The notes beneath the pieces were generated by a model that had not been told where the DNA came from, made no database searches, and saw only the letters and a program-made list of their open reading frames with translations. The position numbers and the translations under genes are program-made. A DNA stretch of 64,000 bases, taken from NCBI GenBank assembly GCA_044222185.1, contig JBGANV010000008.1:241875-305874 (forward strand). Direction: 5' to 3'. This document shows, one piece after another, positions 19,148 to 63,894 of this stretch (its first letter is position 1; every line of letters starts with the position of its first letter). The DNA is from Planctomycetota bacterium (GTDB lineage: Bacteria > Planctomycetota > GCA-002687715 > CAIWVZ01).

Positions 19148-19253
19148 GTGATCTCGCACCGCCCCGCATGCGACGCCCGTTGGCCCGCGCGGGACGCGCG
19201 GCGATCCTGCCAGTCCCCGCCGAGACGGCGGAGGACGTGGCGCTCCGCGGAAG
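19148..19253 (+). repeat. Dispersed ~105-bp hairpin-containing repeat, copy 1
   Basis: About 16 differences from 22301-22405 by manual alignment; hairpins CCGCGCG-GGA-CGCGCGG and CCGCCG-AGA-CGGCGG. Confidence 0.8.
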
Positions 19254-19284
19254 CCCGGCGAGAAGTCGCGTCGTGCCCGTTCGC

Positions 19285-19403
19285 CGTTCCTCGTTCCTCG
19301 TTCCTCGTTCCTCGTTCCTCGTTCCTCGTTCCTCGTTCCTCGTTCCTCGTTCCTCGTTCCTCGTTCCTCGTTCCTCGTTCGTCGTTCGTCGTTCGTCGTT
19401 CGT
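19285..19403 (+). repeat. Heptamer tandem repeat (CGTTCCT)13(CGTTCGT)4
   Basis: 17 units counted directly. Confidence 0.97.
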
Positions 19404-19672
19404 CCCCGGCCTCTCGCTTCGCGCGAACCCGAGCGCCCCGGAGCGCCGCGCGACCCGAGCGTTAGCGAGGGCGTGCGGCAGGATCGCCGGTCGACCGCAG
19501 CGTCAGCGAGGACGACCGGTCCGGCCGATATCCACGCGCTGGCGGCCTCGCGATCATCATGTATCCCTCAGTGATCCGGAGCCACGATCGATCAGTCGAC
19601 CCATCTGGGGAATACGCCCGGAAACATCGAGTCCATCCCCAAACCCCAATGTGCACGCCCAGCGTCAGAACC

Positions 19673-44200: not shown

Positions 44201-46295
44201 CTTCGGCGATGCGGCCGGACCTGCCGGGTCGGTCACCGTCACGGTCGTTCCTCCGTCTCCCGTTCCATTCCTCTCGATCGTGCTCCCCAACAGCACGACG
44301 GCCGGCTCGGGCGGAGGAACCATCGCGCTGACCGGGAGCGGCTTCACGCCGACGAGCAGCGTGCACTTCGGCGCTACGGCGATCCCCACGACGTTCGTCT
44401 CGAGCATCAGCCTGCAAGCGAACATTCCGGCGGGCCTGTTGGCGACCGGCGGCATCGTGCCGGTGACCGTGGTCAACCCTGCCCCGGGGGGCGGGAGTTC
44501 GCCCGCGGTGAACTTCACGATCAACAACCCGTCGCCATCACTCGTGAGCGTGAGCCCGGCGAACGTTACGGCGCTCGGCAGTACGTTCACGCTTGCGGTC
44601 AGCGGCTCTCAATTCAATTCTCAGAGTGTCGTGCGATGGAACGGCGTCAACCTGACGACCGGGCTGGTGAACACCACGCAACTTTCGGCGACGGTTCCCG
44701 CAAGCCTCATCGCCCAACCGGGAACGGCCGCCGTCACGGTGTTCAACCCGACGCCGGCCGGTGGAAGCTCGGCGCCGCAAACCGTGACGATCTTCGCACC
44801 GGGTCCCGGGCTCGTCTCATTGTCGCCGTCGCAAATCGATGCGCTGTCTCCGGCCTTCACGATGACCGTCAATGGTCTGGCGTTCGTCAACACCAGCGTG
44901 GTGAGGTGGAATGGCGCGTCGATCCCGACGACGTTCGTATCCGCAACGCAGCTCACGGCGCAGGTATCTGCAGCCCTGTTATCGAGTGGCGGGTTCGCCA
45001 CCGTCACCGTGTTCACGCCGCCGCCGAGCGGAGGAAGCTCCAATGCACTCACCTTCCTGATCAACAACCCACTGCCGGTCGTCAATTCCGTCGCCCCATC
45101 CGTCGTCACGGCAGGCGGCGCCGCGTTCACGATCACCGTCACCGGTAGCTCTTTCGTCCCCGCGAGCGTTGCGCAGTTCAACGGGACACCGCTCACGACG
45201 ACGGTGAACACCTCCACGAGTCTCACGGCATCGGTTCCGGCGACGCTGATCGCAGCCGCCGGGCAGGCACAGGTGACCGTCACGAGCCCGGCGCCGGCTG
45301 GCGGATCGTCGGGGTCCGCGAACGTTACGGTGCAGAATCCGGCCCCGATCGCGGCAGCATCCAGCCCGGCATTCTTGCTTGCCGGGTCTGCCGGTGGATC
45401 GGTCGCGTTGAGTGGGTCGGGGTTCACGGTGCAAAGCGTCGTGAAGCTCGACGGCGTCGCGCTCGCCACGTCGTTTGCGTCGGCGACGCAGCTGAATGCA
45501 TCGATCCCGGCGAACCTCCCACTTCCCGCACGAGCCGCGACGCTCGCGGTGCTCAATCCGGGACCCGGTGGCGGGTTGTCGGCGGGTCTCGCGTTCCTGG
45601 TGAAGGCGCCACACATCGCGACGATTTCCCCGACGGTCATCAGTCCGCTGACCACGGGTGGCCCGTCGGCGACGGTGACGCTCACGGGATCGGACTTCGT
45701 GAATGGCTCGGTCGTCTACGCGAATCAAACCGCACTCGTGACGACGTTCGTGTCGGCGACGCAACTGACGGCGACGGTGCCGTCGACTCTCGCGGTGGCG
45801 CGTCAGGCGGGCGGAATCGCCATCGGGGTGGAGAGTTTCGGCACGGCGGATTCGAATACCGTGGCGCTCGAGGTCACTCACCACCAGAATCGCGGAACGC
45901 TCGATACGACGCCGCTCGGGCCGGCACCGGGTGAGGTGTTCTCGATCCTGCTGGAGGGTGGCGTCGCAAACGCGCCATTCACGCTGCTTCTCGATGGCGC
46001 CAACATCACGCCGATCGTTCCGTTCCCGGATCCGACTTCGGACTTCGTGCTCTCCGTGAATCTCGGCACCATGAGCGCGATCGTCGACGGCATCGGGCTC
46101 CTCGGCACGCCAAGCCTGATCTCGCTCGGATTCGACCCGAGCGGCACCGCGCCGGGCGGCAAGTTCATCCTCCCTGGAGTGCTGCAGCCCAATCCTCCGC
46201 TCGGGTTCCCGGTGACGCTCCAGTTCGTCTACCTGGACCCGTCGCATCCATCGGGGTTGCGCATGTCGCACGGTTTGTCGCGCTATCAGCTCTGA
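41283..46295 (+). CDS. Large secreted trypsin-like/IPT-TIG protein, paralog of 14409-19103, with degenerate catalytic triad
   Basis: GGAG SD before ATG 41283; same architecture as the paralog (AEFNVPPSNSSGSIVHPPVADQYPVDQT); triad positions read VCGQG / NNWAV / GSAGAP. Confidence 0.85.
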   Translation: MQRPSIPMLVVLTVCAAAPGQQAPLSVNAFNWPVASAVLANTGSAPAAVWSTTINLPGVTSIQIAFGDVNLGSELDHVLIRDPHTNDSQILDPLRLKQWSNQSAWFNSNLLVVELWASPGSTVSASIDHLLCGVGPVGPDSLCDSDNRVPAATAFVCRFISSSSATAGGSSGFMMHAPNVVQGGMVVCGQGASVGGSIVIAEFNVPPSNSSGSIVHPPVADQYPVDQTSILSANTGVGNNWAVMRLHPNSSGQTVDGRQGVGLSQAASIPGLTTQLQINSFGADTTASRNFAEQTDHGPFTFVLGDTISYWVDTDTGSAGAPVLVDSTNEVIAIHTTGGCNPALGQSNNGTSILNANLQSAIAATKTCQTILAVTPGQSAATNLACSPRALAITPSNSSWNVVAVIGAYSSAGDDLDLEIDGVTSSQANGLCDFLISNGNLNPNLAPVSGYVHRSGSPGESRVQFDTATTLAIGSSTTLGWNITNGVRALARIVEFNVATAGTYDVTVAGPFGLKWRLYAPGSTTAWRPRSEAALASGTVGGNTVDSVSLGVGWHAIVIFEDFSGSFGLSPVFGISHAFPETVSVAIAAASPDIALTANGGAVGVPSLPAGQDFSLTPAANVWNAVALTTPPNQFLFGNWNLFLGPAQSRNGTGLLDFAVANGHLGAIPTSEGAVARASGILGATMQHVTELASGATEQLATGRMIAVEPLTPSSGLRRVLVTGGGGASAMRWYVMNSLEEHWMGPDEAAATDVVGGTFHSVTLDSAALVVVSDDGPVSAARPYTAHVTTQGVAASFTTLGQKLAVTTDRLVSVTPSVNNWNAFGVVGPAGTNWDAFIATGESQSASGLADFVIADGHAGTIAVTDGIVERRAGTGTGTLQLASIVTASLFTPTSVSFQTGTPDDIIKIVQFDVTTPGNHSITVNGAAASWALFRPRSDSQWVSRADADFSGTSGSGAATVALPTSGTHALVIFGDAAGPAGSVTVTVVPPSPVPFLSIVLPNSTTAGSGGGTIALTGSGFTPTSSVHFGATAIPTTFVSSISLQANIPAGLLATGGIVPVTVVNPAPGGGSSPAVNFTINNPSPSLVSVSPANVTALGSTFTLAVSGSQFNSQSVVRWNGVNLTTGLVNTTQLSATVPASLIAQPGTAAVTVFNPTPAGGSSAPQTVTIFAPGPGLVSLSPSQIDALSPAFTMTVNGLAFVNTSVVRWNGASIPTTFVSATQLTAQVSAALLSSGGFATVTVFTPPPSGGSSNALTFLINNPLPVVNSVAPSVVTAGGAAFTITVTGSSFVPASVAQFNGTPLTTTVNTSTSLTASVPATLIAAAGQAQVTVTSPAPAGGSSGSANVTVQNPAPIAAASSPAFLLAGSAGGSVALSGSGFTVQSVVKLDGVALATSFASATQLNASIPANLPLPARAATLAVLNPGPGGGLSAGLAFLVKAPHIATISPTVISPLTTGGPSATVTLTGSDFVNGSVVYANQTALVTTFVSATQLTATVPSTLAVARQAGGIAIGVESFGTADSNTVALEVTHHQNRGTLDTTPLGPAPGEVFSILLEGGVANAPFTLLLDGANITPIVPFPDPTSDFVLSVNLGTMSAIVDGIGLLGTPSLISLGFDPSGTAPGGKFILPGVLQPNPPLGFPVTLQFVYLDPSHPSGLRMSHGLSRYQL

Positions 46296-52113: not shown

Positions 52114-52567
52114 TGCTGCAAGCCACAGCATTCTGCATTTCTCTGTTCGACAACTCGTCACTGGCATTAGCATGGCTTTCCCGACGTTGAGTGACTCTCA
52201 TCGGTGCATCGTCGAGCGGGAAAGGCCATGGCAAGCCGCCGCCCGCAGGGACGTTACAAGACGCCCGACGAGATGTACCTCGGCACCGCGGGCGACGTCG
52301 CGAGGAGCCTGAGAACGCAGCGCGCGGTAGCTCGAACCGCGCCCCTGGCTGCGAACCGAGCCGCGCGCTGTGAGATCTGTACGAGTCCCCAGGCGGGAGC
52401 CGAGCCCGATGCGGCCTGACGGGCCAACCATTCCACGAGCGGCACGACCGAGTACCCGGCTTCGACTGGCGACGCAGCCGGGCGGCGCGAACCCGTTCCC
52501 ACGTCCCGACCACCTCGCCCCTGTCGAGTTCTCGAACAGAAAGTGCAGAATGCTGTGGCACTCAGCA
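52114..52567 (+). mobile_element. Internally deleted IS (MITE-like) related to the IS at 61640
   Basis: Inverted ends TGCTGCAAGCCACAGCATTCTGCA... (52114) and ...TGCAGAATGCTGTGGCACTCAGCA (52567); retains transposase C terminus TPDEMYLGT...CEIC. Confidence 0.75.
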
Positions 52568-52828
52568 CCGCTGAGCACCCAGCGCGCGGCTGCCCGTACC
52601 GCGCGCCTGGCCGCGAACCGGGCAGCGCGCTGTGAGAGCTGTACGAGTCCCACGCCGGAGTCTGCACCGAATGCCGCCTGACGGCCACCCGTCCCACGAG
52701 CCACGCGAACGAGGAGATGGCTTCGACCGCCGACGGTGCCGGGGTCCGCACCCGTTCCCGCGACCCGCCCCAGCGCCCGTGTTGTCAAGTTCTCGAACAA
52801 AAAGTGCAGGATGTTGTGGCACGCAGCA
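52568..52828 (+). mobile_element. Second right-end remnant of the same IS family
   Basis: Transposase tail LAANRAARCESC...AA* followed by an IR ending ...GTGCAGGATGTTGTGGCACGCAGCA at 52828. Confidence 0.75.
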
Positions 52829-53305
52829 CTGCTGGGCGCCCTCGACTCCGCCGAGACTCCATCTGATTTCCGGATGGCGGACGCTTCCCAAGTCGGTGTG
52901 GCCATCGAGCATGCGCTTGGTTGGCCAGATGGGTCCTTCGTCGAGGCCATGAAGGAGAACGCAGTCGATCAAGTCGAAGAGGCTTTGGAATCAAACCCAC
53001 TTGCCCAAGAGATCATCCAATGGACCGCTAACGGCGTTTCGTCGTGGACAGGTCCCGCCGCTGACCTCATGGATCTCCTAAATCGCCGCGTGACACCCGA
53101 CATGCGGCGCGCGAGAGGTTGGCCGGTAGATGCGGCGCGCCTAAGCGGCGCGCTCGGACGCGTTGCACCAGCTCTCCGTGCGGTCGGCATCGAAGTGATT
53201 CGAGGCGACCGCGAGTCAGGAACAGGACGAAGGCTGATCACCATCACGGCGACCAAGGCCCCGCCCCCGACATCCGACGGCGTGGAGGAGGGCGATGCCG
53301 TATGA
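52829..53305 (+). pseudogene. C-terminal fragment of a phage/island replication (primase/helicase-associated) protein truncated by the IS end
   Basis: RMAD...ALGWPDGSF, WTGPAADL, GWPVDAARLSGALGRVAPALRAVGIEV; the frame begins at the IS junction. Confidence 0.55.
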
Positions 53306-53748
53306 CTGCTGCCCAGGTCTTCGATTGCCTCGAGCGCGAGGGAATTGCCCTGTTCTTCGATGGAGATCGCCTCCGGTTCCGCGGCCCAAAGGAACGCTAC
53401 ACGCCGGAGTTGCGGGAACTCGTGCGCTCCCACGAGTCATCGATTCGATCAGCGCTGGCGCCGACATCTTGGAACGTGAGCCTGCAGGCGGTCTTCGTGG
53501 TCCGCTGGGATGATCTCGTCTCGGCGGGGTTGTCGGAGAACGACGCTCGTGCGCGCGCAGTCGCCGAGATCTCGAGCGCGGCCAACACCCCCGCGCCCGC
53601 GCTCACACTTCGGGACCGGCTCGGCATCGACCACGAGACGTTCATCACCATCTGCCGCCAGGTGATCCACCGCCCCGGCCCGTCGACGGCCGTGGAGGAC
53701 GCGACCGTCTGCCTCGAGTTGCTTCGACGGCACGGAGGTCGGCGATGA
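53302..53748 (+). CDS. Small phage-type protein with TubC N-terminal docking domain-like region
   Basis: GGAGG SD, ATGA overlap; LEREGIALFFDGDRLRFRGPKERYTPELRELVRSH. Confidence 0.65.
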   Translation: MTAAQVFDCLEREGIALFFDGDRLRFRGPKERYTPELRELVRSHESSIRSALAPTSWNVSLQAVFVVRWDDLVSAGLSENDARARAVAEISSAANTPAPALTLRDRLGIDHETFITICRQVIHRPGPSTAVEDATVCLELLRRHGGRR

Positions 53749-53991: not shown

Positions 53992-55037
53992 TGGGGGTAT
54001 CGCCTTCATGCAGGAACCACGCTGGCCGTGCGGGCTTCGCCGGTCAGCAGATGGATTCTCGGCGCGCGTCGGAGCGCACCTTCCAGCGCGCGACGAAACA
54101 GGTGAGTCCGTGTGCATGCCGTGCGCCGATTGAAGCGGAACGTGAACTCTTCGCAGTAGAGCGCAGCCCACTTCCGGCTCCAAGACCCGTGATAGGTGCC
54201 CAGGATTAGGCGCCGGAGAAGTGAGAACACACGATGGACTCCCGGGAAGAACTTCGACGCGCGCCTGAGATCGCCGATCACGTCAACCTTGTGCTTGTAC
54301 GCGATCTTCAACCCCAATAGCCGCGCCATGCGTCCGTGCAAACCCTGGAACCCTCCTTCACCACCGTTGCCACGAATGGCTTGAGCGACTTTCCGCTCGC
54401 GTCGTCAACCGGCGCAAGCCTCGTTCGCCGGAGCCCTTCCTCGGTTTCATCTCGACGGCTCGGCAACGAGGATCGTCTTCACCGCCGCGCGCTCATCCTC
54501 TTTTGCCCGGTTCCGGCCCACCGGCAATAGGTCTCGTCGCCCTCAACCCTCCCTTTCAGCGATTCCCGCTCCGGCCGGAAAAACGAGTCACGGATCTTCT
54601 GAAGCCACGTCCACGCCGTGTCGTAGGCGAGCCCGAGGACGCGTGCGAGATGGGCTGCGCTACAACCATGCTTGGCCGAGAGGAACTCGAGGATCGCTTC
54701 AACCAGGTTCGCAACGGCGTCCGCGTGCCGTAAACATCGTTCCCGACAGCGACCGATGTTTGGTGGCCACAGCTCGCGCACTCATCGCGACCGCGCTCAA
54801 TGACGAAGTACGCACGCCGGCCGTCGCACTTCGGACAACAGGATCCCATGCGGCCACTTCATCGCTCGCAGGTAGTCCCAGCAGCACGCCGCTTCGTCGC
54901 GGAATCGATTCTCGAACTTGGAGCGTCTCGGGAAAGGCGGCATGCTTCATGGACTTGGTCCTCTGATCGGGAATGGCTCCACCGGCCGGGGGACACCGCT
55001 CACATCAGCCGACTCCTGCTCGAAGACGATACCCCCA
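53992..55037 (-). mobile_element. IS1595-family element, 1046 bp
   Basis: TIRs TGGGGGTATCG(C/T)CTTC..GCAGGA; 8-bp TSD CTGGACGG at 53984-53991 and 55038-55045. Confidence 0.9.
54006..54950 (-). pseudogene. Frameshifted IS1595 (ISXO2-like) transposase
   Basis: Fragments in different frames: CPKC...CASCGHQTS, YDTAWTWLQKIR, VEGDETY, YCEEFTFRFNRR. Confidence 0.85.
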
Positions 55038-55201
55038 CTGGACGGAATGCGCGTCCGAATCTCAGGCCGTGGCGAACCGTACGTCGGGTGGCCGTACCAC
55101 ACCGACGGCACAGGCCGTCGTCATCCGATCTCCCGGCCTGTCGACCCCGAGGTCAAACGCGCGGTCGATTCAGCCATCCTTGCCGCGTGGGAGACGACGC
55201 G

Positions 55202-55552
55202 GTGAGCACTCCTATCGCCGTTATGGACGAAAGCCTGTTGCGCGCAATTGTCGCGGAAGAACTGGCACGCCTATTGGGTCCCATCTGGGACGCGATCGCC
55301 GCCCCGGTTCGGACCGACGACGTTCTCATCGACGCCAAGGCGTTCGCCGCCATCCTCGGGACGAACCGCCGCACGCTACGCCGCCTCGTCCTTGAGCAGG
55401 CCGTCCCAGCACCCATGCGGATCGGAGGCCGAATCCCGCGCTGGCGCCGCATCGACGTGGAGCGGTGGATTCAATCTGGGTGTCAGCCACCTTTGGCCTT
55501 GAGCATGCCCCGGAGTCGAGGCTCCATCGCACGCGTGGAGGCTGGAACGTGA
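55202..55552 (+). CDS. AlpA/excisionase-like HTH protein
   Basis: LIDAKAFAAILGTNRRTLRRLV...PAPMRIGGRIPRWRRIDVERW; GTGA overlaps on both sides. Confidence 0.85.
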   Translation: MSTPIAVMDESLLRAIVAEELARLLGPIWDAIAAPVRTDDVLIDAKAFAAILGTNRRTLRRLVLEQAVPAPMRIGGRIPRWRRIDVERWIQSGCQPPLALSMPRSRGSIARVEAGT

Positions 55553-56811
55553 TGCGCAGATTCGGCATGGGATCGTTGATGAAGGTGGCGACGTCGGGCG
55601 GAGCGTTCGCCTGGGCCGCGAAGTGGACCGACGCGAAGGGCCACCGTCATCGGAAGATCCTGTCGACCGACAAGCGCGTGGCCGAGCGGGTCCTGGCGAA
55701 GACGATCCGGGACCGGGATCTCCAGGTCGGCGGGCTTGGGGACGAGGAGGCACCGGACCAGCTCTTGGCCGCGCTCATGGCCGAGTACCTCGCCGACCTC
55801 GCCACGTTCCGCCGGCCGAAGTATGTCCGGGCGGTGAGGCTTCACCTTGACGCGCTGATGGCCGACCTCGGAGCCGGTACCCGCGTCCGGGACGTGACGG
55901 TGCCACGCATGCTGCTCCGGCGGCAGAAGAGGCTCGCGGAGGAGTTGTCGCACCGATCGATCAACGCCGAGGCCGGGGCGCTCCGAACGGCGCTGCGCTG
56001 GTGCGTCTCCGCCGGACGCATCCCCGTGAACCCGATCGCGAACCTGCGCCCGTTGCCCGAGACGGCCGACACCAAGGTGAAGGTCCGCCGAGCGTTGAGT
56101 GACGACGAGATCGGCCGCCTCCTCGCCGCCGCGGACCAGGACGACGCCGACCGCGCGTCACGGTTCGCCGCCGAGAAGACGATCGCGAGTGGCGTGCTCG
56201 GGAAGGCGTACGCCGGCCGGAAGCGGATGGTGCCGATCCCGCAGGCGCCGCTGATCAAGACGCTGGTCGTCCTGGGCCTTCGCTACAACGAGGCCGCAAC
56301 GCTGACCTGGAACGACGTCGACTTGGACGGCGCGGTCGTCACGGTCCGGGCGGAGAACGCGAAGACGCATCGCAGGCGCGAGGTGCCGGTGCCGGGGTAC
56401 TTGGTCGAGGACCTGCGCGGGCTGCGCCAGTTCCACGTCCGGGCGCTCGGGCGCGCGGCGGACCGTGTTTTCCTGAGCCCGAAGCAAAAGTCGATTAACG
56501 CCCATGGGAATCCAATGCGGCTGCTGCTGGCCCGACTCCTCGAACGGGCGGGGATTGGGTTCAGAAACGAGGACGGGTCGGTCGCGGTCGACATTCATGC
56601 GCTGAGGCACACTTCGGGGTCGCGATTGGCGCGACACGGAGTGCCCATCACGGCGATCGCGGCGTGCCTTGGACATTCGAGCGTCGTGACGACGCAGAGG
56701 TACGTGTCGCTGCGCGTCGAGGACACGCGGAGGGCGGTTGAGGGGGTGCCGGAGATCCAGAACGCCAACGCTCAAGGGTCGCGAATGACCCGGCCCTATG
56801 ATGGTTCCTGA
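55549..56811 (+). CDS. Tyrosine recombinase/integrase
   Basis: Intact catalytic set: GLRYNE, AKT, HALRH, LGHSS, TTQRY. Confidence 0.95.
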   Translation: MMRRFGMGSLMKVATSGGAFAWAAKWTDAKGHRHRKILSTDKRVAERVLAKTIRDRDLQVGGLGDEEAPDQLLAALMAEYLADLATFRRPKYVRAVRLHLDALMADLGAGTRVRDVTVPRMLLRRQKRLAEELSHRSINAEAGALRTALRWCVSAGRIPVNPIANLRPLPETADTKVKVRRALSDDEIGRLLAAADQDDADRASRFAAEKTIASGVLGKAYAGRKRMVPIPQAPLIKTLVVLGLRYNEAATLTWNDVDLDGAVVTVRAENAKTHRRREVPVPGYLVEDLRGLRQFHVRALGRAADRVFLSPKQKSINAHGNPMRLLLARLLERAGIGFRNEDGSVAVDIHALRHTSGSRLARHGVPITAIAACLGHSSVVTTQRYVSLRVEDTRRAVEGVPEIQNANAQGSRMTRPYDGS

Positions 56812-57863
56812 GCATTACTCTTGGAATCAGGCGTCGGCGGCAGACGCGATTCAAGCGTCAACTGAGAAAGATCCAGCGACACGCGGTACCGGATCGGGAT
56901 CTTCGGATCGACGGCGGAAGCTTCGATCTCATCAATGACATAGAGACGCCTGTTCGTCGCGCCGTGTACCATGGCAAGGATCAAGGTCCACTCTGCGACT
57001 TCGATCAGGAACGAGACCGCCTTCACGATCTCTTCGCGAATCGGAACTGGTCGGCGCCCTTCCACGCACCACGTGGGCGGCGTAACGGACGAGGTTGGCG
57101 TGACGCCGAAGTTCTCAACCACCGTGCGAGTCGCCCCGGGATGCTCTTGAAAGTTCCTCAGGTCGATAAGGTGCTTCACACCTGGAGCCACTTGCTGCGC
57201 GAACGTCGTAATCTCCTCGGCCGATCCGACCCTCTGGCTAAGCGTCTTCGCGAGGTGTTCGAAGTTGGTGTCGGTTGTCGGAAAGTCGAGGATAATTCCG
57301 GGCAGTCGACAGATTTCGCGAATTGCGCGCTTCGAATGAATGAGAAATGTCGCTGCATCGGACTCCAAACCCGACACTTGCGGAAGCGGGTTGATCGCGC
57401 CGGTGCGGCGGTCCCGCTTGACATCTCCGCGCTCGATTTCATGTATGACACCGTCGATCCTTCCGGCCACGCTTTGCGCTACGCGCTCGCACACAACAAG
57501 CGCCTCCTTGCAACCATGCAGGGCTTGGATGACGTAGGCTTTCTGTCGTTCCGAGCGACAGCCGATTGCGTCGACGACGTCTCTGCCCTGCAGTAAGACG
57601 CGCGCCACTACTGCATTTCCGGATCCAACGTTGTCATGCGTCGTTATTACCCACGGAGCTGCTGGATTCGTTCGATCGGGATCAACGCAGTCGGGCGTCT
57701 TCACTCTGAAGGTGGCATCGACCTTGTAAACCTCCAGGAAATCGTCGAGTGTGCAGGACGCGACAGCTTCACCGGTCCCGCCCTTGAGTTCGAATGAGCC
57801 GGCTTCATCGCGGGGGAGTTTTCGCAGGGGTGGTGTTGGAGATCCCGTCATCGGCGTGAGCAT
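56796..57863 (-). CDS. Hypothetical protein with C-terminal RxxxxH (HEPN-like) domain
   Basis: Starts 1 nt after the kinase stop (TGAAATG); helical C half with LIDLRNFQEHP. Confidence 0.6.
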   Translation of the reverse strand: MLTPMTGSPTPPLRKLPRDEAGSFELKGGTGEAVASCTLDDFLEVYKVDATFRVKTPDCVDPDRTNPAAPWVITTHDNVGSGNAVVARVLLQGRDVVDAIGCRSERQKAYVIQALHGCKEALVVCERVAQSVAGRIDGVIHEIERGDVKRDRRTGAINPLPQVSGLESDAATFLIHSKRAIREICRLPGIILDFPTTDTNFEHLAKTLSQRVGSAEEITTFAQQVAPGVKHLIDLRNFQEHPGATRTVVENFGVTPTSSVTPPTWCVEGRRPVPIREEIVKAVSFLIEVAEWTLILAMVHGATNRRLYVIDEIEASAVDPKIPIRYRVSLDLSQLTLESRLPPTPDSKSNAQEPS

Positions 57864-57864
57864 T

Positions 57865-59040
57865 TCAGAGGCGAATATTGGCTCGTAACCGCTGTTGGCG
57901 ATCAAGCTCCTCTCGCTCATTGGCGAGTGCCCTTCGACGTTCCTCGGCCGCCTTCGCACGCTGAGTCGACCGATAATCCCGGAACGCGCGCGTGGCAACC
58001 GGCAACCACTCCTTGAACATGTCAATCACGCTCTGGACTTGAGAGTCAGGACAATCGACGGAAGCACGATTATCCTTCACCGTGAACCGACTCGGAGGCC
58101 TTCCAAGCGTGTAGCGGTGAGCCATTCGCAGAAAGCCGTTCCGATGCCAGTCCTCGCTCACTCGACGATCAAGCACGAGAGTAAGGCGACCGGCGCGCCA
58201 ATCGAAATCGACAACCTTCGGAGGCTCAATGGCGAGCGGGTCGTCCTCTTCGCCTTCAGGAATGGCGATATCCCCGATCTCGGAGAGGCGTTGGCGGGTC
58301 GCGAACTGCGCCTCGTGAACGGCGAGCAAATGTCTGACGGCTTCGATGTCAGGCGGCCGCTCCGATGGATCCTGGCGGATCATCCTGTCGACGATTGCGT
58401 CCATCCACCCGTACTCAGGCGCCGCGGATGCGATCGTCCTGTAACCCGTGCCTTGCGGCACGCTTGCCGTGAACAGCTCGTTCAGTATTAGACCAAGTGC
58501 AAAAATGTCGGCGCGGTGATCGACTCGCGATCCGCGAGCTTTCTGCTCCGGAGCGGCGTAATGGAAGTTCGCCAGTCGCTCCGCCGACTTCGTCTCAACC
58601 GCCGTGAACAGCTCCTCGTCGGAGAAGTGGGCAATGCCGAAGTCTGCGATGAGTAACGCAGCGGACGCGCCATCGTGGAGGATGTTCTCTGGCTTCAGGT
58701 CACGATGGACAACGCCGAGCAAGTGCGCCGCTTCTACCCCGTCGAGAATTTGTCGGAAGTAGCGGAGCCGATCCGTTGTCGGCGATTTCGATGCCATCAG
58801 ACCGCGCAACGATCCGCTGAGAATTGGCATCACGTAGAACGGCACCGTCGCCCCGGACACCACGGTTGTTCCGTGATCCGTAACGGTGACGATGCTCTTG
58901 TGCTTGTTGCGCTCGCAGAAACGGATCTCGGCATCATCGACCGCCGCCCAGACGTGACCTGCGCCACCTTCCCCGATCTGTCGGACTAACCGATAGCGGG
59001 CGAAGGCCGATTCGAGCACGCGTTCCGCTGACTTCCCCAT
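57865..59040 (-). CDS. Soluble Ser/Thr kinase-like protein lacking the VAIK segment
   Basis: IGEGGAGHV, HRDLKPEN, DFG, YAAPEQ, DIFALG; no Lys motif between the Gly loop and EIRFC. Confidence 0.85.
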   Translation of the reverse strand: MGKSAERVLESAFARYRLVRQIGEGGAGHVWAAVDDAEIRFCERNKHKSIVTVTDHGTTVVSGATVPFYVMPILSGSLRGLMASKSPTTDRLRYFRQILDGVEAAHLLGVVHRDLKPENILHDGASAALLIADFGIAHFSDEELFTAVETKSAERLANFHYAAPEQKARGSRVDHRADIFALGLILNELFTASVPQGTGYRTIASAAPEYGWMDAIVDRMIRQDPSERPPDIEAVRHLLAVHEAQFATRQRLSEIGDIAIPEGEEDDPLAIEPPKVVDFDWRAGRLTLVLDRRVSEDWHRNGFLRMAHRYTLGRPPSRFTVKDNRASVDCPDSQVQSVIDMFKEWLPVATRAFRDYRSTQRAKAAEERRRALANEREELDRQQRLRANIRL

Positions 59041-59202
59041 ACGCCCGGGACCCGCCCGTGCGCGCCATCACCCTCGATCCGCGGCGACCTCCCAACGAGT
59101 CGCGCCGTCTCCTGACCGCGAGCATCTCGCAACTCGCGAAACAATCAGGTGCTTCGGGATTTGGCGAGCCTCCGTAACTCTCGTGTTTACGGCGGGTTCC
59201 GA

Positions 59203-59245
59203 GCACGCCAGGTAGGAATCGAACCCACAACCTGCTGATTTGGAA
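59203..59245 (-). tRNA. 3' fragment of tRNA-Trp(CCA), probable att site rather than a functional gene
   Basis: Minus strand TTCCAAA-TCAGC-AGGTT-GTGGG-TTCGATT-CCTAC-CTGGCGT-G-C; no D-arm, and the 5' anticodon stem pairs only 3 of 5. Confidence 0.8.
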
Positions 59246-59281
59246 GCAGTCTACTCTCACGGCCGTTTGGCGGACAGAGAC

Positions 59282-59304
59282 GACGTGAGTTGACGTGAGT
59301 TGAC
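59282..59304 (+). repeat. 10-bp direct repeats GACGTGAGTT next to the att core (possible arm-type sites)
   Basis: GACGTGAGTT GACGTGAGTT GAC. Confidence 0.5.
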
Positions 59305-59852
59305 ACGAACTTCTGAGTTTGCGGATTTGTAAGGGGTCTCGGCGAGCCTCGACCCGGACAGAGACGACGTTTTGCGGACCGAGAGGATGCGAGGAAGTCG
59401 CCACCGGCGGGGTTTTGCGGTCGGCCTGGGCCACGGCCAGAGCGGGGTCCCATCGATGTCCGGGAATGCCAGGCCCGTCCTCTCGTTGGTCGAAGGCGGG
59501 GGCAGGACCGTCAGGCTGCGAGAGAACGGCGGTGGCCTCGCAGCACCGCGGGCGCCTGACGATGGCGCTGGTTTGGGTCGCGGTGACCTCGCAATGAGGG
59601 GGCGGAGAGAACGTGGCGCCGTCGACCCGCGTCGGTGCCGCGGCATCGCAGCGGCGCAACGATAACGTCGCGGAGTCCGCTTGCTCGTCGGCGATGATTT
59701 CCATAGGCCATTTCGGCGCCATTCTCAGCGCGATCGACGTTTGCACCACGCGCGGGTCACAGATAACGACATCTGCATTCTCGCGCCGATCCTCGCCACA
59801 TCCGAGCGCCACACGTACAGCGACGACAAGCAATAGTCGTATCGGACCAGTA

Positions 59853-61622
59853 TCACCTGTTAATGTATACTTCACCCTGCACCTCTATCGCTTCGTAGTT
59901 GACGCGCGTGCCCTTCCCAGCCGCCACGACGTAACGTAGACCTCGCCTGACAGGTATTGTCGTCTTGCCGTATTGATTCAATCGCCCCGTACCCGTAACG
60001 CGCCCATCCTCGCTTATCGCGCGTACGACCTCTCCGGTCTCCGTTACCGCGAACGGCGAACACGTCACTACTATCCCGCCATCCGGCAACGGATATGTGA
60101 TGCTATTCACGTTGGATTCAAGACCAATCTCATTTCGCTCGCTGAATGCGTCCGCAACCGCCAACGTGACGTGGAACCGGCCCGTCGGCACGCCGTCAAG
60201 CCAGCCGATACCCGCTTCGTCGAATCTATTGATCTGCCACATGAATTCATTTTGCACGGCATTCGGGTCAACCCCGTCCATGCCGACTGTAAGTCGACAG
60301 TCGCGATACCCGATCGCAAGACTCTGACTGTACTCAGTCGGTGTCACGCGCACTGTAATTGTTCGTTCCGCTACCAATACAATGGTCTGATTGCGTTCGC
60401 GGGAATACGTCACCGCGCGTCCGAATCCATGCTTGGTAGCCGTTATTGTTGTCGGTAGGCTGACTCCCTCGAATGTTGCCAAACCGGCAGCATCCGTCAC
60501 CGCCTCCTGTCGATCCCAAACGGCAGCGTCCAAGGATACCAGTGTGGTCGTTGCCCTAAGCTGCACGCTGGCAATGGGTGCCCCAGCTGCATCGATGACG
60601 CGCACTTGCAGGTCAGCTCCTCGCTTTAGTGCAATTGGAGAAGATGGCGGCCTCCCTGGGAGGAGTCTAGCCATGGCCGATACGAACCCCCTCGCACTCG
60701 CCGCCACTGTAACGGGCGCGTTTGATGGGTAGCCTTGAATAGTGAATTCGCCGTTGCGGTCGGTTACCACAGCCCGGCCGTACCCAGCCGCCTCCCTAAC
60801 CACCGCGTCTGGTATTGGCCTGCTGCTAGCCTTGTCAACCACGACGCCGTGTAGGCTCAGTCCAACGCGAGACAACTGGAGGCGAATGCGCTCGCGCTCG
60901 CGTTCCGGCGACAGTTGGCGCGTCACCTCGGCATACGCAAACTCGGGATGAGTCGCACGAATCCTGACCGTCCCGGTGGGAGCCCATGGGAAGTCACACT
61001 CGCCACGGCCGTCGCTGCGGGCCGTCCAGGCTATCACGTCCTGCTTGCCCGAGGACACAACCTGCACCTCGGCATTTGGGATCGGGTACCCTTCAACGGT
61101 TTCGACGACCACAGCCAGCTCGACGTGAATTCCCAACCGTAGCACATATGTACCGCCGCTGCGAACACCGTACTCAATCCCGTAGGACTGGTCCTTGTAC
61201 GCTATCAGGTCATAAGCCCCGTCTCTAACTATGATCGTGGCCGCGCCCATCATATCGGTACATCCACGTGCCACCGTCGGTTCATCTATCAGTCTGCGGC
61301 TCGCCACGAATCGTTCGCCGGCCGTTACGACCTGGAGCGCGACATTGGAGACTGGCTGGTCGTTGTCTCCGAGGACACGGACGCGCATTTCGCTCGTCGA
61401 AGACCGACTCTGGGGCCCCTCGTTGGAACCGGCCCGATCTGCGTGCGCGGCTGCTGTGACAGTCACTCCATTGAGCGTAGCCACAGGGCCACGCTCGTCG
61501 TTTGCTGAACCACCGCCACGACCTGGCTCTGGTCGGCGCGCACCACGCCAAAGCAGGACGGCACCTACGGATAGCGCAGCAATTGCGAGCCATGATAGGG
61601 CGACGAGCCGTTTATGGCGCAT
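59853..61622 (-). CDS. Membrane-anchored carboxypeptidase-regulatory-like domain protein (lower GC)
   Basis: N-terminal TM; repeated GYPIPNAEV, GVVVDKASSRPIPDAVV, TDRNGEFTI, VIDAAGAPIASV motifs. Confidence 0.75.
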   Translation of the reverse strand: MRHKRLVALSWLAIAALSVGAVLLWRGARRPEPGRGGGSANDERGPVATLNGVTVTAAAHADRAGSNEGPQSRSSTSEMRVRVLGDNDQPVSNVALQVVTAGERFVASRRLIDEPTVARGCTDMMGAATIIVRDGAYDLIAYKDQSYGIEYGVRSGGTYVLRLGIHVELAVVVETVEGYPIPNAEVQVVSSGKQDVIAWTARSDGRGECDFPWAPTGTVRIRATHPEFAYAEVTRQLSPERERERIRLQLSRVGLSLHGVVVDKASSRPIPDAVVREAAGYGRAVVTDRNGEFTIQGYPSNAPVTVAASARGFVSAMARLLPGRPPSSPIALKRGADLQVRVIDAAGAPIASVQLRATTTLVSLDAAVWDRQEAVTDAAGLATFEGVSLPTTITATKHGFGRAVTYSRERNQTIVLVAERTITVRVTPTEYSQSLAIGYRDCRLTVGMDGVDPNAVQNEFMWQINRFDEAGIGWLDGVPTGRFHVTLAVADAFSERNEIGLESNVNSITYPLPDGGIVVTCSPFAVTETGEVVRAISEDGRVTGTGRLNQYGKTTIPVRRGLRYVVAAGKGTRVNYEAIEVQGEVYINR

Positions 61623-61639
61623 TGCGCTGCTGCCAGCCC

Positions 61640-63083
61640 TGCTGCAAGCCACGACATTCTGCACTTCTCTGACGCAATTGCGACACGATTCTCATCCCTC
61701 CGCACCATGTGTCCGGCCGGTAGATTCTTGACATCGCGCACCCGTTCCGCGAGGCTATTCCGATGGCAACTGGCACTCCACGACGGCGTTACGACCATCG
61801 GTTCGTTGACCTCGTTCGGGAGTCGGGCGACATCAGCATCGCACTGACGCTTGGAGTTCCGCGCTCGACTGCCGCATCCTGGCTCTCCAGGCCTCCCGGT
61901 CGGTCGATGTCGCTGGTGCAGCCCGAGCCCAAGGCCGAGGCTCTCCTGCACGAGGTCGCAGACCTGCGGCGACGAGTCGTCGCGTTGTCGGCGCTTCTTC
62001 GAGTCCTGATCGCCGTGTTTCGGGGCTTTGGCCTGGGCCTCGCTCGCAGGCGCATGCCAGACGGCGACAGCAAGCTCCGCATCATCGATGCCGTTGTGAA
62101 GGCGCAGAGGATCATTCCGCTCCGGAAGATCCTACACCTGATCGGACTCTCCGCCTCTCGGTTTCATTCCTGGCGGCGAGGCATGACTGGTTGCGGCCTC
62201 GAAGATCGAACGACGTGCCCAAAGTCCTCGCCGCAACAGCTTCTCGCCGAAGAGGTCAAGGCGATCCGGGAGATGGTGCTTTCTGAGGAGTATCGCCACG
62301 TCCCGACGGGGACTCTGGCCCTGCTGGCGCAGAGGCTCGGCCGCGTCTTCGCATCGGCGACCACCTGGCATCGTCTCGTTCGAGAGAACGGTTGGCGCCG
62401 TCCGCGTACACGGGTCCATCCCGCCAAGCCGACCGTCGGCATCCGAGCCGCCGCTCCCGACGAGATCTGGCACATCGACACGACCGTGATCCGGCTCGTC
62501 AACGGGGTGCACGCCTACCTGCATGCCGTGATCGACAACTTCTCCCGCCGAATCCTCGCATGGAAGGTGGCCGAGAAGTTCGATCCCACGACCACGGTTG
62601 CCGTCCTGCTCGAGGCCGCCGGCCTGCGACGCGACGTCGCGGGAACCCCGACCGTGATGACGGATGCCGGAGTGGAGAACTGCAATCGCCACGTCGACGC
62701 GATCGTGAATCAGGGCGTCCTCCGGCGCATCATCGCCAGGACGGAGCTTCGATTCTCGAACTCGATGATCGAGGCGTTTTGGCGCACGTTGAAACATCAG
62801 TGGCTCTATCTCCACACGCTGGACAGCGTCAGGAGCATCGAACCGCTCGTCGCGTTCTATGTCAGAGAGCACAACTCGACCTTGCCGCACTCCGCGTTTC
62901 GCGGCCAGACGCCTGATGAAATGTACCTCGGGACCGGAGCGCAAGTTCCGAACGACCTCGGGGACCGTCGGCGCCTCGCTCGAAAGACACGAATCGAGCA
63001 GAACCGGGCTCGCGTGTGCCCGGTCTGCGTGACGCCGAGGCCGGCGTCCGTGGGCGCTGCGTGACCGACCGCATCCGATGAAT
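61640..63083 (+). mobile_element. DDE insertion sequence (IS3/IS481-like), right end interrupted by IS66
   Basis: Left IR TGCTGCAAGCCACGACATTCTGCAC at 61640 matches the IRs at 52114, 52567 and 52828. Confidence 0.75.
61763..63064 (+). CDS. DDE transposase (rve integrase core)
   Basis: N-terminal HTH GVPRSTA; WHIDTT, IDNFSR, MTDAG, IEAFWRTLK, PHSAFRGQTPDE. Confidence 0.92.
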   Translation: MATGTPRRRYDHRFVDLVRESGDISIALTLGVPRSTAASWLSRPPGRSMSLVQPEPKAEALLHEVADLRRRVVALSALLRVLIAVFRGFGLGLARRRMPDGDSKLRIIDAVVKAQRIIPLRKILHLIGLSASRFHSWRRGMTGCGLEDRTTCPKSSPQQLLAEEVKAIREMVLSEEYRHVPTGTLALLAQRLGRVFASATTWHRLVRENGWRRPRTRVHPAKPTVGIRAAAPDEIWHIDTTVIRLVNGVHAYLHAVIDNFSRRILAWKVAEKFDPTTTVAVLLEAAGLRRDVAGTPTVMTDAGVENCNRHVDAIVNQGVLRRIIARTELRFSNSMIEAFWRTLKHQWLYLHTLDSVRSIEPLVAFYVREHNSTLPHSAFRGQTPDEMYLGTGAQVPNDLGDRRRLARKTRIEQNRARVCPVCVTPRPASVGAA

Positions 63084-63160
63084 GTACGCGTTCGGCCAAC
63101 CGCACCTAATTCCGGGCGGTGAGGGGGCGGAGGATGCGCGCGTCAATTTGGAGGACGCGC

Positions 63161-63535
63161 ATGAAGCAAGAACGTGAACTGCCGCGGAGTCCGCGGCGAT
63201 CGGCGGCGGAGTGGTTGGAAATCGTGCGGGAACAATCAGAGAGCGGTGAGTCGGTTCGTCGATTCGCCGAGGCGCGGGATCTGAACCCGTCGACACTGAC
63301 GTGGTGGAAGTCCGAATCGCGACGAAGGACGCCGGTGCCGATGACCGGGCGCAGCGCCAGCCCCTCCAGGACAGGCAATGGAGCCTTCGTCGAACTGGTC
63401 CCACCTGGGAACGCGGCGGCGTCGGAGTGTGCGTATTCGGTGATGCTCTCCAGCGGGATCATCGTTCGGGCGACGGAGGCGATCGATGTGGAGGCGTTTG
63501 TTCGTCTCGTGGCGGAGCTCCAACGCGCATGCTGA
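63161..63535 (+). CDS. tnpA: IS66 accessory protein TnpA
   Basis: WLEIVREQSESGESVRRFAEARDLNPSTLTWW, FVELV. Confidence 0.85.
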   Translation: MKQERELPRSPRRSAAEWLEIVREQSESGESVRRFAEARDLNPSTLTWWKSESRRRTPVPMTGRSASPSRTGNGAFVELVPPGNAAASECAYSVMLSSGIIVRATEAIDVEAFVRLVAELQRAC

Positions 63536-63894
63536 CGCTCTCGCCTGCGACGCGGATCTTCGCCGCGCTCGGAGCGACGGACATGCGAAAGCAGTTCGAC
63601 GGCCTCGTGGCACTGGCGCGCGACGTCATGAAGGAGGATCCCTTCTCCGGTCACGTCTTCGCTTTTTGCAATCGCCGTCGCGATCGGATCAAACTGCTCA
63701 TCTTCGATCGCAGCGGGTTCTGGCTCTGCGCGAAGCGGCTCGAAGGGGGCACGTTCGCATGGCCGGAGACGACGAAGGGCACGGCGCGCGTCGAGTGGAG
63801 TTCAGCGGACCTCTCACTCTTGCTCTCTGGCGTGGATCCCGTGCGCGTGGTGCGTCGAAGATGGTGGTCTCGTGACGACGTAACGCGCGCGTGA
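63529..63894 (+). CDS. tnpB: IS66 accessory protein TnpB
   Basis: DMRKQFDGL, DPFSGHVFAFCNRRRDRIKLL, KRLEGGTFAWP. Confidence 0.95.
   Translation: MLTLSPATRIFAALGATDMRKQFDGLVALARDVMKEDPFSGHVFAFCNRRRDRIKLLIFDRSGFWLCAKRLEGGTFAWPETTKGTARVEWSSADLSLLLSGVDPVRVVRRRWWSRDDVTRA

Follow-up and report, generated by a model that had tools for sequence, protein, structure and literature searches.

Two minus-strand genes lie beside a tyrosine integrase gene on a contig of a Planctomycetota bacterium, one encoding a Hanks-type Ser/Thr kinase (P0001) and the other a protein with a candidate HEPN Rx4H motif (P0002). This arrangement raises the question of whether the pair forms one phosphorylation-controlled RNase module, as the original prediction proposed, or whether the two genes are separable. 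We considered the question within the window, by which we mean the whole 64,000-nt stretch of DNA that was analysed, and around homologs of P0002 in other genomes. The features of the locus are collected in Table 1.

Table 1. Features of the kinase/P0002 locus and its surroundings, in window coordinates.
Feature	Coordinates	Strand	Basis
Tyrosine integrase gene (context)	55465..56811	(+)	Pfam Phage_integrase 7.5e-22
P0002, HEPN-like candidate gene, 355 aa	56796..57863	(-)	ORF; unnamed family of ~330 aa
R236-N-F-Q-E-H241, candidate HEPN Rx4H catalytic motif	57141..57158	(-)	conserved in homologs
Gene junction TGAAATG	57861..57867	(-)	kinase stop, one base, ATG of P0002
Hanks-type Ser/Thr kinase gene (P0001, 391 aa)	57865..59040	(-)	ORF and Pfam Pkinase
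24-residue in-frame gap of the kinase, between A37 and E38	58927..58932	(-)	alignment with 4 full-length homologs
tRNA-Trp(CCA)-like remnant (context)	59204..59266	(-)	cmscan tRNA, 20.3 bits, D-arm missing

Both ORFs of the coupled pair are present, and the junction between them is the one originally described, reading CTC TGA A ATG in the sequence. With a spacing of 1 nt, no intergenic region is left upstream of P0002, which is therefore either co-transcribed with the kinase or driven from a promoter inside the kinase gene. Such spacing would be expected of an operon partner. An alternative start from the gene caller, an ATG at 57920, would give a 374-aa protein (P0003) whose gene shares 56 nt with that of the kinase; homologs, judging by their N-termini, favour a start at 57863 or 57851. 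At the opposite end the gene is convergent with the integrase gene, and their 3′ ends overlap by 16 nt, as read from the stop codons. Scanning 56500-59500 gave no promoter-like site and a single terminator-like one, on the wrong strand, a count below the shuffle mean; the scan is uninformative. The lower GC content ascribed to the pair is also borne out, at 0.584 for P0002 (GC3 0.657) and 0.604 for the kinase (GC3 0.686), against 0.682 for the integrase (GC3 0.864) and 0.671 for the window.

The pair had further been placed in a cargo slot between the integrase and a tRNA-Trp att site. The integrase is real by its Pfam match, but the tRNA is only a remnant, with an anticodon CCA and an E of 0.24, scoring below the gathering score of 29 in cmscan, and no att repeat is present in the window. 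ARAGORN finds no tRNA in the window, and Rfam none at gathering score. A 32-nt probe from the remnant, allowing up to 3 mismatches, matches only itself within the window, and exact repeats of at least 13 nt between 59150-59330 and the rest of it are absent. The low-GC patch, moreover, runs on beyond the remnant into 59853-61664. Because the tRNA is only a remnant, has no repeat partner and is followed by more of the low-GC patch, an integrase-att slot cannot be delimited here. A tRNA-integrated genomic island is likewise not supported, there being no intact tRNA and no direct-repeat partner within the window. The surroundings also hold a frameshifted IS1595-type transposase (54006-54781) and further IS copies (61763-63894).

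Is the motif in P0002 meaningful? The string itself is close to chance expectation: by our own estimate, a 355-aa protein contains about 0.6 Rx4H matches by chance, so the significance of the motif can come only from its conservation in homologs. We found 65 homologs besides the window's own copy, and the family comprises 450 cluster representatives of ~330 aa, spread, judging by record titles, over at least eight phyla. In an alignment of 28 homologs, L-R-N-x-x-E-H is invariant; across 75 diverse homologs, H241 never varies, and R236, N237 and E240 each show conservation of 90% or more. Similarly, RNxxEH occurs at 29 of the 30 loci covering this position, the exception (L013) reading HNFHEH. 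P0002 is full length and keeps all residues that are invariant in the family, and its C-terminal tail, which runs into the integrase 3′ end, is not conserved. None of the best 150 of the 450 representatives exceeds 359 aa, and no longer or fused form of the family was found, which is weak evidence. P0002 itself has no match in Pfam, PADLOC or NCBIfam, so that for this protein the earlier statement of no match to a named system holds, and tblastn with P0002 against plasmids and phages gave no match.

The predicted structure is consistent with the motif lying where a HEPN active site would be expected. The AF2 model of P0002 (pLDDT 95.1, pTM 0.90) combines a HEPN-like helical core with a beta-sheet subdomain, and its motif lies at the C-terminal end of a helix spanning residues 217-240, followed by a loop and hairpin and then by a helix at 275-301. 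Both the position and the helical setting of RNFQEH thus agree with what was first noted. An excerpt of PMC3710099 defines the HEPN motif as a conserved Rx4-6H with a polar N, D or H directly after the R, and P0002 family members have exactly such an Rx4H with a polar N following the R. The same excerpt locates the motif where helix-3 ends or the loop to helix-4 starts, within a four-helix up-down core (PMC3710099), a position with which the helix end in our model is consistent. The HEPN domain of ApeA has insertions between H3 and H4 as well as after H4, according to the part of an ApeA preprint that deals with them (10.64898/2026.01.26.701840). The loop and hairpin after the P0002 motif agree with these insertions as excerpted there.

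Profile and fold searches, by contrast with the motif, give no significant match. HEPN_Apea is the only Pfam family that recurs, matching 7 of 75 members at E ≤10 (best match E 0.001 and 19.9 bits); its gathering score of 24.4 is reached by no member of the P0002 family. Single weak matches to Abi_C, Ribonuc_2-5A (once, at E 0.21, among 74 members) and DUF4145 fall on the same stretch of the protein as the HEPN_Apea matches. A nearest Atlas cluster (score 0.97) carries the automatic name 'putative Apea-like HEPN domain-containing protein'. Foldseek returned 0 matches to the model at E ≤0.001 in the PDB and nothing significant in BFVD. Below threshold in the PDB are HepT chains 7ae2_A and 7ae8_D (E ~0.5, TM 0.32-0.37) and Csx1 (E 0.38). 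We treated the top Foldseek rows (MakE, NheA, cohesin and GldM, TM ≤0.2) as noise from long helices. When the PDB was searched by sequence and profile with the family, nothing meaningful emerged, the matches (a serpin, kalirin, troponin and an LRR protein) being due to chance, and no significant match to a HEPN family came from Pfam or PDB profile searches. ApeA entries of the PDB that the preprint names, such as 9HXI, came up in none of the searches, although they may be missing from the libraries searched. The proposal that P0002 is a HEPN-like RNase therefore keeps the support of motif conservation and predicted secondary structure and gains none from fold or profile comparison.

The kinase was described originally as a Hanks kinase with an extra C-terminal domain and a coiled coil. 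The analysis found a Pkinase match (6.1e-23, residues 37-197), an additional alpha/beta domain that is specific to the family, and a long terminal helix at 332-388 in the AF2 model (pLDDT 75.6). The C-terminal domain is common to only 6 other proteins, and a tblastn search of plasmids with it gave no match. Classification of the kinase domain is generic. PADLOC gives PD-T4-6 as its best match (2.9e-35, residues 45-245, kinase domain only), followed by mad6, MkoA and Stk2; NCBIfam matches all fall far below their curated cut-offs, with PknB-type and MAD6 models scoring alike; and the best Foldseek matches are PknB-type kinase domains, again only generic and leaving the C-terminal domain unassigned. 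As the PD-T4-6 match is limited to the generic kinase domain, we rejected filing the protein under that name.

Alignment with four full-length homologs (410-414 aa) shows what sets the window's copy apart. All four carry the segment ...VAVKVL...RFKN, which is missing here, and the gap takes with it the beta-3 lysine of VAVK; the G-loop, HRDLKPEN, DFG and APE are kept, and the ORF is still open over 391 codons. Because the lysine is lost, the kinase is probably inactive in this genome. The original prediction had spoken of a 'repaired kinase', a remark that this 24-aa in-frame gap relative to homologs fits.

Co-occurrence of the pair in other genomes was the test set in advance by the original prediction, and its outcome goes against the proposed module. 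We counted co-occurrence around P0002 homologs, at 32 genomic loci that again span at least eight phyla by record title, detecting kinase homologs by tblastn at E ≤1e-5. None of the 32 loci contains a kinase homolog; relaxing the cut-off to E ≤1 adds one chance match. Nor is there a Pkinase domain among the 142 neighbouring ORFs. No neighbour of any kind is conserved across the 32 loci, and no conserved same-strand adjacent ORF was found among 53 candidates. Among the literature matches listed, we found no description of a bacterial two-gene system joining a kinase to a HEPN protein. Given that homologs of the two genes are adjacent at none of these P0002-centred loci and that this kinase copy lacks its beta-3 lysine, a phosphorylation-controlled two-gene system is not supported.

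The neighbourhoods themselves are mixed. They include transposases, an integrase, a serine recombinase, and AbiH, HEPN_AbiV, Mrr, PIN_12, NACHT and Schlafen-type genes; at 3 of the 32 loci, tRNA genes are found immediately upstream of the P0002 homolog, and at least 5 of the 32 family copies are disrupted. Many loci have ordinary metabolic neighbours (for example L003, L004, L013, L015, L017 and L032). Known defence genes adjoin only a minority of the homologs, and PADLOC matches among neighbours are few and partly generic; a defence role for P0002 thus rests on analogy.

On balance, we lean towards P0002 being a stand-alone ApeA-like HEPN RNase candidate beside a decayed defence-type kinase, the two being functionally separable genes of foreign composition. 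P0002 would then be a compact HEPN-type ribonuclease working like ApeA or like an abortive-infection anticodon nuclease. In its helical core, R-N-x-x-E-H would form the active site where the third core helix ends, and the beta-sheet subdomain, made up of N-terminal, inserted and C-terminal strands, may keep activity in check until infection or stress provides a cue, whereupon RNA cleavage would halt growth. RNase activity, dimerisation, switching by a trigger and a role in defence are inferred. The upstream gene would be a rare Hanks-type kinase with a C-terminal domain of its own, similar to single-gene defence kinases. P0002 would not need it, because the kinase is probably inactive here and the P0002 family stands alone in every other genome examined. 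The patchy multi-phylum spread of the family, its frequent disruption and its tRNA and mobile-element contexts fit a conflict gene.

These same contexts speak against P0002 being something other than a defence nuclease, which we regard as unlikely. Under such an explanation the R/N/E/H cluster would serve ligand or nucleic-acid binding or some other hydrolase chemistry, or the protein would be a selfish-element maintenance toxin lacking any anti-phage function, and the resemblance to HEPN proteins would reflect convergence or a relationship too distant for function to be transferred. The shortage of significant fold and profile matches, the many loci among metabolic genes and the few, generic PADLOC neighbours are all compatible with this. 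However, in form the motif is exactly that of HEPN proteins (R, polar N, three further residues, H), and it occupies the expected helix end; moreover, the weak family matches on the motif stretch are all to RNase-type HEPN families. It is very unlikely, in turn, that an old insertion left both genes behind as decaying remnants that no longer function, their junction and the 16-nt overlap being by-products of deletion. The internal deletion of the kinase, the tRNA remnant, the frameshifted transposase and IS copies nearby and the unconserved P0002 tail in the integrase 3′ end would be expected of such decay, but a full-length P0002 that retains every invariant residue and yields a model of pLDDT 95 would not, and the kinase frame, too, has stayed open.

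Joint function of the kinase and P0002 has its own arguments. A lineage-specific system could use the kinase to sense infection or to neutralise the RNase by phosphorylation, resembling the covalent toxin modification of HEPN/MNT pairs or amounting to a trans version of kinase-KEN RNases. The genes are co-oriented and, given their junction, necessarily (nearly) co-transcribed; they have in common a low GC and GC3 unlike those of the integrase, and the kinase C-terminal domain could be a partner or sensor module. Against this stand the 32 loci without a kinase homolog, the lack of fused forms, and a kinase that has lost its beta-3 lysine segment next to a supposed toxin that is intact. Were the kinase an essential antitoxin or activator, its loss with the toxin intact would imply lethality or a dead system. 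As indirect evidence, none of the six contigs that carry the kinase homologs equals in length any longest contig of the 65 P0002 homologs. The residue that follows the motif histidine in P0002 is a proline, not a tyrosine. In HepT, the tyrosine after the motif H is the modified residue. HEPN toxins controlled by an adjacent modifying enzyme do provide a precedent, in the part of PMC7641770 that describes them; we nevertheless rate joint function as improbable. A more specific version would have a widespread stand-alone 'mini-ApeA' HEPN RNase captured in one lineage under a rare sensor kinase. The result would be a phosphorylation-gated RNase module, a bacterial two-polypeptide counterpart of kinase-KEN RNases or a HEPN/MNT system with phosphorylation in place of AMPylation, caught here after the kinase was disabled, and the P0002 family would independently constitute a new class of compact, single-protein HEPN immune effectors in at least eight phyla. 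We offer this combined picture as a long shot.

If the stand-alone ApeA-like HEPN RNase reading is right and the family is active, P0002 would represent a compact (~330 aa), confidently modelled single-gene HEPN effector found in at least eight bacterial phyla and absent from Pfam, NCBIfam and PADLOC. As a candidate for a new defence gene of abortive-infection type it would be tractable, and it would also be a candidate for the study of how a minimal HEPN enzyme is switched off and on. The locus also illustrates that tight spacing next to an integrase does not suffice to define a system: here the comparative test went against coupling to the kinase. We find the P0002 family moderately interesting in its own right.

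Among known systems, RNase L and Ire1 unite a kinase fold with a KEN-type HEPN RNase in one functional unit, according to an excerpt of PMC3710099. They are eukaryotic fusions, whereas the kinase and P0002 are separate proteins with no fusions found and only the solitary Ribonuc_2-5A match noted above. PD-T4-6, Stk2 and MAD6-type kinases resemble P0001 in their PADLOC kinase-domain match, an extra C-terminal domain and a mobile low-GC patch, and the PD-T4-6 match is not diagnostic since it covers a generic domain that PknB-type and MAD6 models score similarly. P0001 differs from them in a C-terminal domain shared with so few proteins and in its missing beta-3 lysine. The nearest precedent for a two-gene arrangement is HEPN/MNT (HepT-MntA), in which a HEPN RNase is controlled by covalent modification from a next-door enzyme, as set out in part of PMC7641770. 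There, however, a nucleotidyltransferase serves as partner in a conserved pairing, unlike that of P0002 with a kinase, and HepT is a minimal HEPN protein of ~140 aa whose structures (7ae2 and 7ae8) are not significant Foldseek matches to P0002.

The closest comparison is with ApeA, an anti-phage HEPN protein encoded by a single gene (Pfam HEPN_Apea, PF18739), as presented in excerpts of the preprint (10.64898/2026.01.26.701840). ApeA is larger (~580 aa), has N-terminal and Mid domains and forms decamers or dodecamers, by the same partial account, whereas members of the P0002 family are ~330 aa with beta strands interleaved with helices. PADLOC ApeA models do not match P0002, and a Cas13-ApeA model matches one of the 75 family members, at E 0.036. 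We rejected P0002 as ApeA proper: at 355 aa, with its best 150 relatives no longer than 359 aa, it has a domain layout unlike that of ApeA and no match above threshold. The two nevertheless share several traits. The weak Foldseek neighbours of P0002 include HepT and alpha-catenin chains, a curious parallel to the closest structural homologs named for ApeA domains in the excerpted preprint (10.64898/2026.01.26.701840), and HEPN_Apea is the one recurrent, if weak, Pfam signal in the P0002 family. Like ApeA, moreover, P0002 is a stand-alone single gene, its family having no conserved partner at the 32 loci.

The two minus-strand open reading frames (ORFs) proposed as a two-gene unit are both present, with the Hanks-type kinase gene directly upstream of the gene for P0002, the HEPN-like protein. 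Their junction reads CTC TGA A ATG, reproducing the predicted TGAAATG, and RNFQEH, the candidate RNase motif, lies exactly at 57158-57141 (P0002 residues 236-241). The gene caller also offers an upstream ATG at 57920, giving a 374-aa protein (P0003), though a start at 57863 or 57851 better fits the N-termini of aligned homologs. As had been noted, the computed GC content of both genes is below that of the integrase gene and of the window. The next gene past the supposed att is equally GC-poor, so the low-GC patch spans the tRNA remnant rather than stopping there.

Features of the window and tRNA genes upstream of P0002 homologs in other loci (the latter in the coordinates of their own locus)
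Feature	Coordinates	Strand	Basis or product	GC	GC3
Whole window				0.671	
Tandem repeats	17323-18569, 44478-45791		270-nt families, 60-78% identical, common to both distant regions		
Tandem repeat	19250-19424		7-nt unit, CGTTCCT shifting to CGTTCGT, ~170 nt long		
Repeat	52309-52841		~262-nt spacing, copies 80-86% identical		
ORF	53119-53748	+	TubC_N docking domain, 2.8e-07, residues 71-109		
ORF	54006-54341	-	C-terminal end of ISXO2-like (IS1595) transposase domain, 6.5e-08		
ORF upstream of 54006-54341	54479-54781	-	No Pfam match		
ORF	54800-55552	+	Sub-threshold HTH_17 (excisionase-type), residues 180-226, 24.2 bits vs cut-off 27		
Tyrosine integrase	55465-56811	+	Pfam Phage_integrase, 7.5e-22	0.682	0.864
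P0002 gene	56796-57863	-	ORF, 355 aa counted from ATG at 57863	0.584	0.657
Kinase gene	57865-59040	-	ORF, 391 aa	0.604	0.686
tRNA-like remnant	59204-59266	-	Permissive scan, 20.3 bits vs gathering score 29		
Next gene past supposed att	59853-61664	-	603 aa; CarboxypepD_reg-like and Ig-like (Big_1, MG) domains	0.598	0.624
IS3-type transposase	61763-63064		rve domain		
Further overlapping ORFs	63119-63894				
tRNA-Ser, locus L004	5575-5664				
tRNA-Val, locus L018	1646-1720				
tRNA-His, locus L031	5710-5785				

The integrase beside the pair is real, and its 3′ end overlaps that of P0002 convergently by 16 nt. The predicted tRNA-Trp att held only in part: there is a tRNA-like remnant whose anticodon is CCA, but although its T-arm is good, its D-arm is cut to 6 nt and its score is sub-threshold. 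ARAGORN found no tRNA gene anywhere in the 64-kb window, and an Rfam search of the window gave no tRNA match at the gathering score. Repeat searches revealed no second copy of the remnant within the window, and the island boundary therefore cannot be drawn.

Immediately left of the integrase and its excisionase-like neighbour, two consecutive ORFs (54006-54781) have the appearance of an IS1595-family transposase that is frameshifted or split. The ORF directly upstream of the integrase overlaps the integrase start; it probably represents the Xis/AlpA-like gene of the element and has its true start farther downstream. A second insertion-sequence cluster (61763-63894) lies right of the pair. The TubC_N match is unexpected in a mobile-element neighbourhood. 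The repeat at 52309-52841, flanked by a large secreted-protein gene on one side and mobile-element genes on the other, contains a 32-nt motif at 52529 and 52790 that occurs nowhere else in the window at ≤3 mismatches. Farther away, the 270-nt repeats are likely to code for Ig-like domains, repeated within two very large paralogs.

Searches of Pfam, PADLOC and NCBIfam gave no match for P0002, in keeping with the original failure to match the module to a named system. A word-indexed search nevertheless recovered 65 homologs at 38-55% identity, always called 'hypothetical protein' where named, and an exhaustive search yielded 450 cluster representatives at E ≤0.001 (69 at E ≤1e-30). The best 150 of these 450 are all ≤359 aa and align with P0002 over their full length, which makes the two-part architecture normal for the family; no fused forms were found among proteins of 623-2000 aa, which is weak evidence. 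L-R-N-x-x-E-H is invariant across 28 closer homologs. Among 75 diverse members, with identity down to 21%, every sequence has H241, and conservation reaches at least 90% at each of R236, N237 and E240. An AlphaFold model from this 75-row alignment (pLDDT 95.1, pTM 0.90) contains helices at 84-100, 105-144, 166-191, 201-211, 217-240 and 275-301 and strands at 35-55, 72-77, 247-267, 308-312 and 326-330, with the RNxxEH motif ending helix 217-240 before a loop and hairpin. P0002 represents an unnamed family that is absent from the curated libraries searched, widespread and confidently modelled.

Across the 75 members, HEPN_Apea is the sole Pfam family matched repeatedly (7 at E ≤10; 5/74 at E ≤0.3; best match E 0.001, 19.9 bits), always on the motif-bearing stretch. 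The same stretch also draws single weak matches to Abi_C, a member of the HEPN clan, and to Ribonuc_2-5A and DUF4145. The HEPN survey (PMC3710099) counts Ribonuc_2-5A and DUF4145 as HEPN families. The name 'putative Apea-like HEPN domain-containing protein' was assigned automatically to one ESM Atlas cluster among the nearest (score 0.97). In addition, the ApeA HEPN domain has insertions between and after its last two helices, as described in section 7 of the ApeA preprint (10.64898/2026.01.26.701840), paralleling those in the predicted P0002 model. No family member reaches the HEPN_Apea gathering score of 24.4 bits, however, and PDB chains, searched with the family by profile and by sequence, gave chance matches only. 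Foldseek comparison of the model with PDB and BFVD returned nothing at E ≤0.001, with HepT chains (E ~0.5, TM 0.32-0.37) and Csx1 (E 0.38) below threshold. Given the conserved motif and the recurrent weak HEPN signals, set against the lack of a significant fold or profile match, the HEPN-like RNase reading is the best-supported mechanism for P0002, a putative HEPN member; a function outside RNA cleavage or outside defence appears unlikely. The chemistry best supported for this family would then be an already-known one.

To survey genomic context, one genome per species was scanned; 110 stretches matched the pattern and 33 were confirmed, giving 32 loci. By our own assignment from organism names, these come from at least eight phyla (Nitrospirota, Pseudomonadota with many genera, Chloroflexota, Spirochaetota, Acidobacteriota, Planctomycetota, Verrucomicrobiota and Bacillota), to which Syntrophales and Longimicrobiales loci would add. 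Of the 30 loci that cover the site, 29 carry RNxxEH; the exception, L013, reads HNFHEH. What surrounds the homolog varies between loci. L008-L011, L021 and L025-L027 have mobile-element neighbours, namely transposases, an integrase, a serine recombinase or a shufflon protein. Defence-type neighbours comprise Schlafen/AlbA_2 (L002), HEPN_AbiV (L005), PDC-M14A (L007), PDC-S31 (L008), Mrr (L016), PIN_12 (L019), AbiH (L024) and NACHT (L025), and other loci are plain metabolic neighbourhoods. In 3/32 loci a tRNA gene 0.2-1.2 kb upstream of the homolog echoes the remnant in the window; these tRNA genes suggest that small islands often carry the family at their edge nearest the tRNA. At least five of the 32 homologs (L001, L025, L027, L030 and L031) are broken or truncated. 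Overall, the family has the character of a lone gene that moves horizontally and is often lost.

In three Planctomycetota loci (L021-L023; two Pirellulales, one Sedimentisphaerales) an AP2-domain protein, which in L022 and L023 carries an HNH domain as well, is encoded ~1.4-1.8 kb upstream of the P0002 homolog. No other neighbour family is common to three loci, and this one has the look of a homing-endonuclease-type gene, not of a partner.

The proposed phosphorylation-controlled module of kinase and RNase found no support in this survey. tblastn found a kinase homolog in 0/32 loci (E ≤1e-5), and separate queries with its N- and C-terminal parts at E ≤1 gave one chance match. None of the 142 non-overlapping neighbour ORFs contains Pkinase, one being an APH-type phosphotransferase 2 kb from the homolog in L008. 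All-against-all BLAST of 805 flanking ORFs detected no neighbour family common to more than three loci, apart from a group of shadow ORFs that run antisense across the P0002 homologs, and among 53 same-strand adjacent ORFs nothing recurred between loci. Indirectly, no P0002 homolog has a longest contig equal in length to any of the six contigs that carry the kinase homologs. The kinase itself has only six relatives with the same C-terminal domain (search with residues 200-391). Aligned with these, it lacks 24 residues in frame between A37 and E38, where all four full-length homologs (410-414 aa) read ...VAVKVL...RFKN; the ATP-anchoring beta-3 lysine is therefore absent. The G-loop, HRDLKPEN, DFG and APE motifs are kept. 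Judged from its sequence, the window kinase is crippled and probably inactive.

If the kinase were indispensable as antitoxin or activator, an intact P0002 beside a crippled kinase would be hard to explain. Three points still favour coupling: the genes are 1 nt apart, so that P0002 has no upstream region of its own in this window; both have low GC3; and the co-occurrence count was taken from loci of P0002 homologs rather than from kinase-homolog neighbourhoods. Weighing these points against the empty count and the damaged kinase, we consider coupling improbable and pure decay of the genes slightly more so, and somewhat favour P0002 and the kinase being independent genes.

Pfam places Pkinase at residues 37-197 of the kinase, and its structural neighbours are PknB-type kinase domains. 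In a model of moderate confidence (pLDDT 75.6, 7-row alignment), the extra C-terminal domain that had been predicted appears as a small alpha/beta domain (~276-329), and there is a terminal helix (332-388). PADLOC matches, led by PD-T4-6 models (2.9e-35) and followed by mad6, MkoA and Stk2, cover the kinase domain alone, and NCBIfam matches (PknB-type, MAD6) fall far below cut-offs. The resemblance to PD-T4-6, MAD6 and Stk2-type defence kinases thus runs through the generic kinase fold alone. For control by a neighbouring enzyme, the closest precedent is HEPN/MNT, in which, as described in PMC7641770, a HEPN toxin is controlled enzymatically by its neighbour; that pairing is conserved, whereas the kinase/P0002 pairing is not. 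In working principle, the system closest to the putative P0002 RNase is ApeA, described in its preprint (10.64898/2026.01.26.701840) as a HEPN anticodon nuclease that is encoded by one gene and has a sensor pocket. P0002 does not qualify as an ApeA on size, domain layout and model scores.
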